Shown here: positions 7,235 to 7,660 of the stretch, one piece after another | Position numbering within the stretch: the stretch's first letter is position 1 | Layout: each line of letters opens with the position of its first letter | Assembly (NCBI RefSeq): GCF_003334335.1 | Contig: NZ_QOWQ01000072.1 | Direction: 5' to 3' (one strand) | DNA length: 7,660 nt | Origin: Escherichia coli | GTDB lineage: Bacteria > Pseudomonadota > Gammaproteobacteria > Enterobacterales > Enterobacteriaceae | Notes under the pieces: model-generated | Database searches by the model: none | Seen by the model: the letters and a program-made list of their open reading frames with translations, nothing else | Told to the model about the DNA's origin: nothing | Program-made: the position numbers and the translations under genes

Positions 7235-7660
7235 TCATCTTTCGGTGGCGGGTTCTTCCTGTGTGGGCCAGCCCACAACGTAACGCTGAATGGCCTCCGC
7301 ATCCTGAAGTTCTGCAATCTCTTTTTTCATGTTGCGCTGGCGCACATGAATTTCCATTCCCTTCGCGAACATTGCCTGTTGCGCGGCTTCACTCAGCGCA
7401 ATCAGTTCTTCCGCAGTCATGGGGACGTCGTTGTTGTCTGCGTCTGTCCAGAAAAACTTCTCCGGGAGATTGCCTTCTTTTGCTGCGATAACTGATGGGC
7501 CAAGGCGATCCTGTGTTTCCTTTCCATAATCCCAGTTACGGCCATTAAAGCTGAAAATATAACTGGCTGATTCCATTCTGTTCCGCCAGGCGTTGATCCC
7601 GGCGGTTTTGAGTTCTCTGGCTTTTTCCGGGCTGATGGATGGCTGTACATATTCTGCAAT
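7235..7660 (-). CDS. Partial CDS (C-terminal 141 codons; N-terminus beyond the window), function unassigned, possibly tail-fibre-associated
   Basis: The ORF track reports 7235-7576, but my own translation shows the minus-strand frame stays open up to the window edge (...IAEYVQPSISPEKARELKTAGINAWRNRMESASYIF...), so the gene is truncated by the window. Composition is protein-like, whereas the overlapping ORFs in other frames are Cys/Phe- or Ser/Thr/Pro-rich artefacts. It lacks the C-terminal motif I associate with classical Tfa chaperones. Stop TGA at 7235-7237. Confidence 0.5.
   Translation of the reverse strand: MAEYVQPSISPEKARELKTAGINAWRNRMESASYIFSFNGRNWDYGKETQDRLGPSVIAAKEGNLPEKFFWTDADNNDVPMTAEELIALSEAAQQAMFAKGMEIHVRQRNMKKEIAELQDAEAIQRYVVGWPTQEEPATER

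Follow-up and report, generated by a model that had tools for sequence, protein, structure and literature searches.

The gene cut by the right edge of the window, by which we mean the whole 7,660-nucleotide stretch of Escherichia coli DNA analysed here (contig NZ_QOWQ01000072.1), probably encodes a DUF4376-type chaperone cognate to a collagen-knob tail fibre. The N-terminal module of this protein would dock onto the fibre knob, while its DUF4376 module would oligomerise and set the register of the fibre chains. We give this reading a probability of about 0.78. It is carried by the family membership of the protein, the position of its gene, the existence of modular chimeras, the co-variation with fibre tips and the recombinant structure of the gene. 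The protein most likely helps the fibre to fold, and the gene is therefore ordinary content of the structural module, neither unknown cargo nor a defence gene.

Identification of the edge gene

A reverse-strand open reading frame (ORF) spans window positions 7235-7660 and translates into 141 residues and a stop codon (TGA, complement of 7235-7237), uninterrupted by internal stops. The program-made ORF list gives only an internal-ATG version (7235-7576) because the frame exceeds the right window edge. The first-pass annotation, made from the window alone, had described a convergent gene at this edge. The convergent orientation is confirmed, as the gpU-like gene on the opposite strand ends at 7199, and the peptides quoted there, INAWRNRMESASYIFSFNGRNWDYGKE, KFFWTDADNNDVPMTAEELIALSEAAQQAMFAKGMEIHVRQRNMKKEIAELQ and GWPTQEEPATER, are all present in the 141-residue translation.

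Window positions 6700-7660 are 100% identical to the chromosome of E. coli G1/2 (NZ_CP060083.1), in which the P2-like prophage containing the window region adjoins serS, and at least 99.5% identical to 13 further complete genomes (of 5,426). The rightward extension that had been suggested could be made on the identical G1/2 record, and gave the full ORF together with a fibre gene as its neighbour. The complete gene (minus strand, window-equivalent 7235-7837, locus L001 20536-21138) is 603 nt long and encodes the 200-aa protein WP_134880941.1, "DUF4376 domain-containing protein". Its 3′ 426 nt (codons 60-200 and the TGA) are carried by the window at 7235-7660; residues 1-59 lie outside and are taken from the 100% identical G1/2 record.

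A Pfam scan of the full protein returned DUF4376 (PF14301) only, at residues 73-182 with an E-value of 2.9e-20. This conserved C-terminal module, also delineated by the AlphaFold2 model, corresponds to window positions 7292-7621 on the minus strand, and was found in the window fragment alone with an E-value of 9.7e-21. The protein matches PHROG 1141 ("tail fiber protein") over its full length (residues 1-191 on profile positions 4-192 of 194, E 2.1e-79), and its N-terminal 75 residues are also matched by phrog_1795; the fragment on its own gave PHROG matches with E-values of 1e-58 to 1e-56. In a collection clustered at 90% identity there are 554 matches (best E 5.5e-124), and all the named ones are called "DUF4376 domain-containing protein". 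Given the Pfam and PHROG matches of the fragment and these 554 homologues, the edge ORF is a real gene and not a chance ORF. The whole DUF4376 family amounts to 1,167 clusters at 50% identity (E ≤ 1e-3), nearly all of them small proteins with the domain at the C-terminus. No NCBIfam family matches the 200-aa protein, and searches of the PDB with the single sequence and with a 42-sequence profile returned no relative of solved structure. Pfam and PHROGs already name this gene, and the annotation of tail fibre assembly protein already exists for close relatives of it.

Genetic context of the DUF4376 gene

The gene occupies the position of P2 gpG, since it begins 16 nt 3′ of the stop codon of a P2 H-type tail fibre gene; it has its own AGGAG ribosome-binding site. 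This site directly 3′ of the fibre gene bears out the earlier placement of the gene in the P2 G region, with a tail-fibre-associated product. The H-type fibre (532 aa) has a Phage_tail_fib domain at residues 1-150, two copies of the Phage_fiber_2 repeat and, at 384-439, a collagen Gly-X-Y run of 56 residues. It ends in a knob of about 93 aa (..IGTY...PGSW...GLFQRAY), for which Pfam has no family. Its collagen run and knob are encoded at window-equivalent positions 7854-8303 (L001 21155-21604, minus strand). Knobs of this class also terminate the side tail fibres of lambdoid prophages.

The order of the genes is V-W-J-I-H-[DUF4376 gene], convergent with FI-FII-E-T-U, then D-ogr on the first strand, compared with H-G-fun(Z)-FI-FII-E-T-U-D-ogr in P2. 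The FI-U block is therefore inverted relative to P2, as the first-pass annotation had modelled it. The inverted FI-FII-E-T-U block (window 1454-7234; L001 13609-20527) places gpD apart from gpU. The sister P2-like prophages L003, L007, L010 and L102 have this layout too, so that the inversion is not private to this prophage and appears to be a fixed trait of the whole P2-like prophage lineage. We also considered an invertible segment and rejected it, because several sister prophages share the arrangement and no convincing inverted repeats flank the block, the best ones (22-25 nt, 76-77% complementarity) being chance-like.

The convergent neighbour is a gpU-like tail protein gene, the last of the inverted block (6735-7199, plus strand; 'phage tail protein' in RefSeq), whose equivalents at sister loci carry Phage_P2_GpU. 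Its stop codon is separated from that of the DUF4376 gene by 35 bp (7200-7234). A terminator scan located in this gap a bidirectional intrinsic terminator, scored on both strands, a hairpin with a 9-bp stem and 6 G-C pairs at 7205-7226: AACGCCCTGGTGTCAGGGCGTT is followed by a T-run on the plus strand, and the minus strand has the T-rich tail ATTATTTAAA. This terminator is common to the convergent gpU operon and to the fibre/chaperone operon.

Several other elements were recorded along the prophage. At window 1514-1531, between the divergently oriented D-like (308-1453, minus strand) and sheath genes, the intergenic sequence TGTAAAAAAATCCCCACA fits TGT-N12-ACA, the consensus of P2 Ogr/Delta activator sites, of which about 1.5 matches per window are expected by chance. 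RefSeq annotates a 23-aa 'hypothetical protein' at 3828-3899 (plus strand; L001 17129-17200), after the gpE-like gene (3364-3744) and overlapping the start of the tape-measure gene; this ORF could be what remains of the E/E' product that P2 makes by -1 frameshifting and that is unannotated here. Beyond the window, a toxin gene of the Hok/Gef family (L001 12994-13134, minus strand) lies at the prophage end between serS and the ogr-like gene, and a 656-aa DUF6645 protein is encoded between the lysis genes and the tail genes R/S (L001 26792-28762, minus strand). At a Salmonella locus (L005 5744-8023) a 759-aa SASA+DUF6645 protein is encoded directly after the DUF4376 gene. The DUF6645 proteins could be a second receptor-binding or esterase protein.

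Relatives encoded next to fibre genes

Fibre chaperones with a DUF4376 domain, encoded directly behind the fibre gene, are a class documented in the literature (PMC7289586, PMC10579305, PMC7882524), and in leaving the function open the first-pass annotation was too pessimistic. In Alteromonas phage V22, gp27 (195 aa) is encoded just 3′ of the fibre gp26; it is required for an active fibre and co-elutes with it, but it dissociates easily, the interaction being weak and lost on gel filtration (PMC7289586, PMC10579305). A5 gp9 is bound more tightly to its fibre than gp27, but folding proceeds without it, and the authors of that work see in it a transient "cap" (PMC7289586, PMC10579305). Mounted on a pyocin scaffold, the H-fibre of Campylobacter CJIE1 requires co-expression of the DUF4376 gene that follows it in order to function (PMC7882524).

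The E. coli protein shares with V22 gp27 and A5 gp9 its size class (about 195-240 aa), a C-terminal DUF4376 domain (residues 73-182 of 200 here versus 92-184 of 195 in gp27), a gene immediately 3′ of the tail fibre gene, and a predicted fold of N-terminal β-strands and a helical body with β-hairpins. In both cases fibre and chaperone are swapped as a module between phages of different morphotypes. The V22 and A5 system differs by its marine host and by another fibre head, for which no collagen run is described. The likeness is thus one of domain, position and predicted fold, and the experimental support is that of V22 gp27, the E. coli protein being known here from its sequence and model. The CJIE1-like gene of Campylobacter jejuni similarly encodes a DUF4376 protein after a P2-H-like fibre in a myovirus-type prophage, and co-expression is needed for fibre function there; host and fibre tip differ from the E. 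coli case.

Divergent DUF4376 relatives are encoded directly 3′ of a fibre gene in P2-like, lambdoid, Mu-like, SU10-like, PB1 and Rac-type phages. In lambdoid prophages the order is J-lom-stf(collagen)-DUF4376, which is the tfa position. The gene also follows a fibre gene in one Mu-like element, in one locus with an SU10-type adaptor and, again directly, in Rac-SA53. In Pseudomonas phage PB1 the ORF44 fibre is followed by ORF45, a DUF4376 relative annotated 'tail fiber component'. A close known relative, with which P-Eib ORF-191 is grouped, is the "tail fiber assembly protein" of phage PhiR5_2 (XSB41400.1), encoded directly 3′ of a tail fibre gene. It is 85% identical to the present protein over 95% of its length, but it belongs to another, non-P2 phage backbone, and the 3′ half of its gene shows only 62-78% DNA identity.

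Some relatives depart from the common arrangement. The PB1 homologue (L018 4001-4429) has 142 aa, matches residues 1-145 and is devoid of the last long DUF4376 helix; about 248 records of PB1-like Pseudomonas phages contain it, directly after the 964-aa ORF44. In the Eib prophages of ECOR-9, the DUF4376 gene ORF-191 lies immediately 5′ of the immunoglobulin-binding gene eibC (P-EibC, L103 3065-5525), so cargo does accumulate 3′ of the DUF4376 chaperone gene in other phages, though not in this window. Among 39 DUF4376 genes with a gpG-like N-module, 15 have no upstream fibre gene and are overlapped at their start by a 70-77-aa ORF (L058 4016-4249 and 14 similar IMG/VR loci). At L015 (3781-4672) the order is stf(collagen)-DUF4376(201 aa)-70-aa ORF-DUF4376(223 aa). 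Such fibre-less gpG-like DUF4376 genes may be second chaperone genes left as 'orphans', or remnants of a cassette.

Modular chimeras and co-variation with the fibre tip

Two relatives join a classical N-terminal module to DUF4376. P0070 (248 aa) shares 45% identity with lambda Tfa over residues 1-117 of each protein (E 2e-36), and DUF4376 follows (125-230); it belongs to a P2-like prophage of the present lineage, where its gene comes after that of a fibre of 1,021 aa whose tip is His-rich. In P0080 (227 aa), residues 1-106 are 45% identical to residues 4-113 of P2 gpG (E 6e-28), again followed by DUF4376. In both proteins the similarity to Tfa or gpG ends exactly where DUF4376 starts. According to the Mu Tfa work summarised in PMC9608196, Tfa proteins bind the fibre through a variable N-domain and oligomerise through a conserved C-domain. 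The chimeras show that, in evolution, DUF4376 takes the place of this conserved C-domain, with which it looks interchangeable.

The relationship between N-modules and fibre tips was analysed on 80 IMG/VR loci recovered with the family alignment, gene starts being set by homology anchoring. N-modules were typed by BLASTP against three references, and tips by the terminal motif of the upstream fibre. Where an upstream ORF of at least 100 codons lay close to the gene start, the arrangement was fibre-then-DUF4376 in 57 of 59 loci. The N-module type of the present gene was associated in 33/33 loci with a knob tip ending ..FQRI[AS] (22 distinct tips, nearly all after a collagen run), the gpG-like N-module in 22/22 loci with a YRPxQ/GFLQV tip, and the lambda-Tfa-like N-module in 2/2 loci with an HxH ..NYIVRLA tip. 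No mixed pair of N-module and tip was seen in the 57 informative loci of the 80.

Mantel tests over 50 distinct pairs gave a correlation of 0.73 between tip and N-module (p ≤ 0.0005), versus 0.30 between tip and DUF4376 module. Within the type of the present gene alone, the corresponding values were 0.61 and 0.17. Mean normalised similarity was 0.18 for tips and 0.31 for N-modules, and reached 0.69 for DUF4376 modules, which are the most conserved. An earlier version of the analysis on eight loci gave the same picture. The matching of N-module and tip argues for direct recognition of the fibre tip, whereas the conservation of the DUF4376 module independently of the fibre argues against a receptor-binding role for it. 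N-module and fibre head thus co-vary, and the β-strands of the N-module would pair physically with the head as the two co-evolve.

Recombinant origin of the gene

Comparison by blastn with sister P2-like prophages showed DNA homology from T through U and the terminator into the DUF4376 coding sequence, up to window 7601-7628. Homology is then lost over the N-module and the distal fibre, and resumes in the N-terminal part of H and in I/J. With the non-P2 phages PhiR5_2, L011 and L012, the common stretch extends from within DUF4376 through the N-module and knob to the collagen run. In a codon-threaded sliding comparison, codons 1-80 are 97-100% identical in DNA to PhiR5_2, and the value falls to 62-68% from codon 81, while identity to the P2-like prophage L010 rises to 92-98% at codons 151-180. 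Both approaches place the junction at 7583-7628 (minus strand), near codons 70-85 and the invariant INAWRN motif. On its 5′ side lies the fibre-tip cassette, and on its 3′ side sequence typical of the P2-like lineage.

These identity patterns show that the DUF4376 gene is a recombinant, with one crossover inside the conserved DUF4376 coding sequence. The blastn patterns and sliding identities define the exchanged cassette as "distal fibre + chaperone N-module". The same logic of cassette exchange has long been known for Tfa/gp38-type fibre modules.

Predicted structure

The structure prediction that the first-pass annotation had called for yielded a confident AlphaFold2 model of the 200-aa protein, built from 42 homologues (mean pLDDT 92.9). 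The N-terminal module comprises strands 3-11, 18-25 and 32-37 and a helix at 43-54. After a linker, the DUF4376 body begins with a helix (70-90), a hairpin at 93-104 (strands 93-97/100-104) and a second helix (106-120), and continues with a hairpin at 129-139 (strands 129-131/137-139) and a long helix (142-175). The predicted fold agrees with the published description of the chaperones gp27 and gp9, in which three strands at the N-terminus are combined with a helical body that includes hairpins.

Foldseek searches with the model were uninformative on mechanism. The PDB gave no match at E ≤ 0.001. Against predicted viral structures, 46 matches were obtained at E ≤ 0.001, in phages of hosts ranging from Pseudomonas to Bacillus and Synechococcus and in crAss-like phages. 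Almost every named match is a "DUF4376 domain-containing protein"; a single one is a "Phage tail assembly chaperone protein". The intramolecular chaperone domains of T5 pb1 and K1F endosialidase, and prefoldin beta, are possible comparators; the reported T5/K1F likeness was not reproduced here.

Discussion

We propose that the edge gene encodes a functional counterpart of P2 gpG assembled from different modules. The gene would share a transcript with the fibre gene H as the last gene of the V-W-J-I-H operon, whose transcription would stop at the terminator 7205-7226. From the data above we infer fibre binding, oligomerisation and oligomeric state, and the fate of the protein after assembly, as follows. 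The N-module of about 68 residues (three β-strands and a helix, mostly past the window edge) would recognise the C-terminal fibre knob that follows the collagen-like Gly-X-Y run. The DUF4376 module (helices and β-hairpins, within the window) would oligomerise and bring three fibre C-termini into register, so that knob and collagen triple helix could fold from the tip backwards. Once assembly is complete, the chaperone may depart or remain as a loosely bound cap. Since phages that are otherwise unrelated have DUF4376 in conserved form, the module would also provide a homology arm for swapping cassettes of fibre tip and chaperone N-module, and the present copy is the product of such a swap.

The main competing explanation is that the protein becomes a lasting part of the distal fibre, as a cap or adhesin comparable with T2/S16 gp38 or with Mu Tfa in its fibre-bound form. 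It would then stay on the virion to aid receptor recognition or to shield the tip, instead of acting as a transient folding helper. The PHROG label and the annotation of PB1 ORF45 both name a fibre constituent, A5 gp9 stays bound to its fibre and is unneeded for folding (although the cap proposed by its authors is a transient one), and Mu Tfa is reported to remain bound. However, DUF4376 is the most conserved part across fibre tips and across hosts (E. coli, Salmonella, Klebsiella), at 0.69 compared with 0.18 for the tips, whereas a receptor-binding surface would be expected to show the reverse, and V22 gp27 is lost from its fibre on gel filtration. We therefore regard a retained component as unlikely, though it deserves more weight than the explanations that follow.

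It is very improbable that the protein is a highly diverged member of the classical Tfa (Caudo_TAP, PF02413) family, with DUF4376 as a divergent Tfa C-terminal domain. P2 gpG, lambda Tfa and Mu U do share with it the gene position after the fibre, the role of recombination anchor for fibre cassettes and the two-module logic of a variable, fibre-specific N-domain and a conserved C-domain. Homology of DUF4376 with the TfaMu C-terminus is asserted in PMC7882524. Our Pfam and hhalign results do not support this equation. Caudo_TAP gave no match in scans of the fragment or the full protein, whereas the Mu U control gave Caudo_TAP only (residues 40-175, E 9e-37) and no DUF4376. BLASTP against P2 gpG found nothing, hhalign of the 42-sequence family alignment against gpG and Mu U gave a probability of 0.1%, and neither module of the 200-aa protein has detectable homology with classical Tfa; in the chimeras, too, the Tfa/gpG similarity stops at the DUF4376 boundary. 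The earlier statement that the classical Tfa C-terminal motif is missing was correct, since Caudo_TAP, BLASTP and hhalign were all negative. The DUF4376 HMM search proposed with it was the right test, giving a significant match where Caudo_TAP and defence models gave none.

The least credible explanation is an accessory gene, whether moron, defence or anti-defence, inserted as cargo at the variable site occupied by Z/fun in P2: such sites are known, fun(Z) following G in P2 and eibC following the DUF4376 gene ORF-191C in P-EibC, but no PADLOC-DB defence family matches the protein even at E ≤ 1, on which ground a defence gene was rejected, the gene lies 16 nt from H in the same operon with its own AGGAG, it is strictly paired with the fibre-tip type (57/57 informative loci), and the 35 bp with a bidirectional terminator that separate it from the gpU stop codon provide no Z/fun-like slot and no space for a separate cargo gene. 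The 'hotspot cargo' alternative of the first-pass annotation fails on these points, and both this reading and that of a cryptic Caudo_TAP protein are contradicted by the tests made here.

The chimeras with lambda-Tfa and gpG N-modules allow a broader and more speculative view, which we advance tentatively. DUF4376 might be a second 'universal' C-terminal module of phage fibre chaperones, structurally unsolved and serving in assembly or as a cap; without sequence relationship to the Tfa C-domain, it would nevertheless be freely interchangeable with it. It might act as a removable virion cap that times the adhesiveness of the tip, and as a recombination arm that moves collagen-knob cassettes among enterobacterial myo-, sipho- and podovirus backbones.

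The right edge of the window carries a normal gene of the tail module, and the site equivalent to Z/fun conceals no cargo. The gene belongs to a family that is large, with its 1,167 clusters, and that is without a solved structure. The pairings in this sample, namely knob tip with the N-module of the present gene, YRPxQ with the gpG-like and HxH with the lambda-Tfa-like N-module, are rules that could guide phage and tailocin engineers in choosing a chaperone for a given fibre tip.
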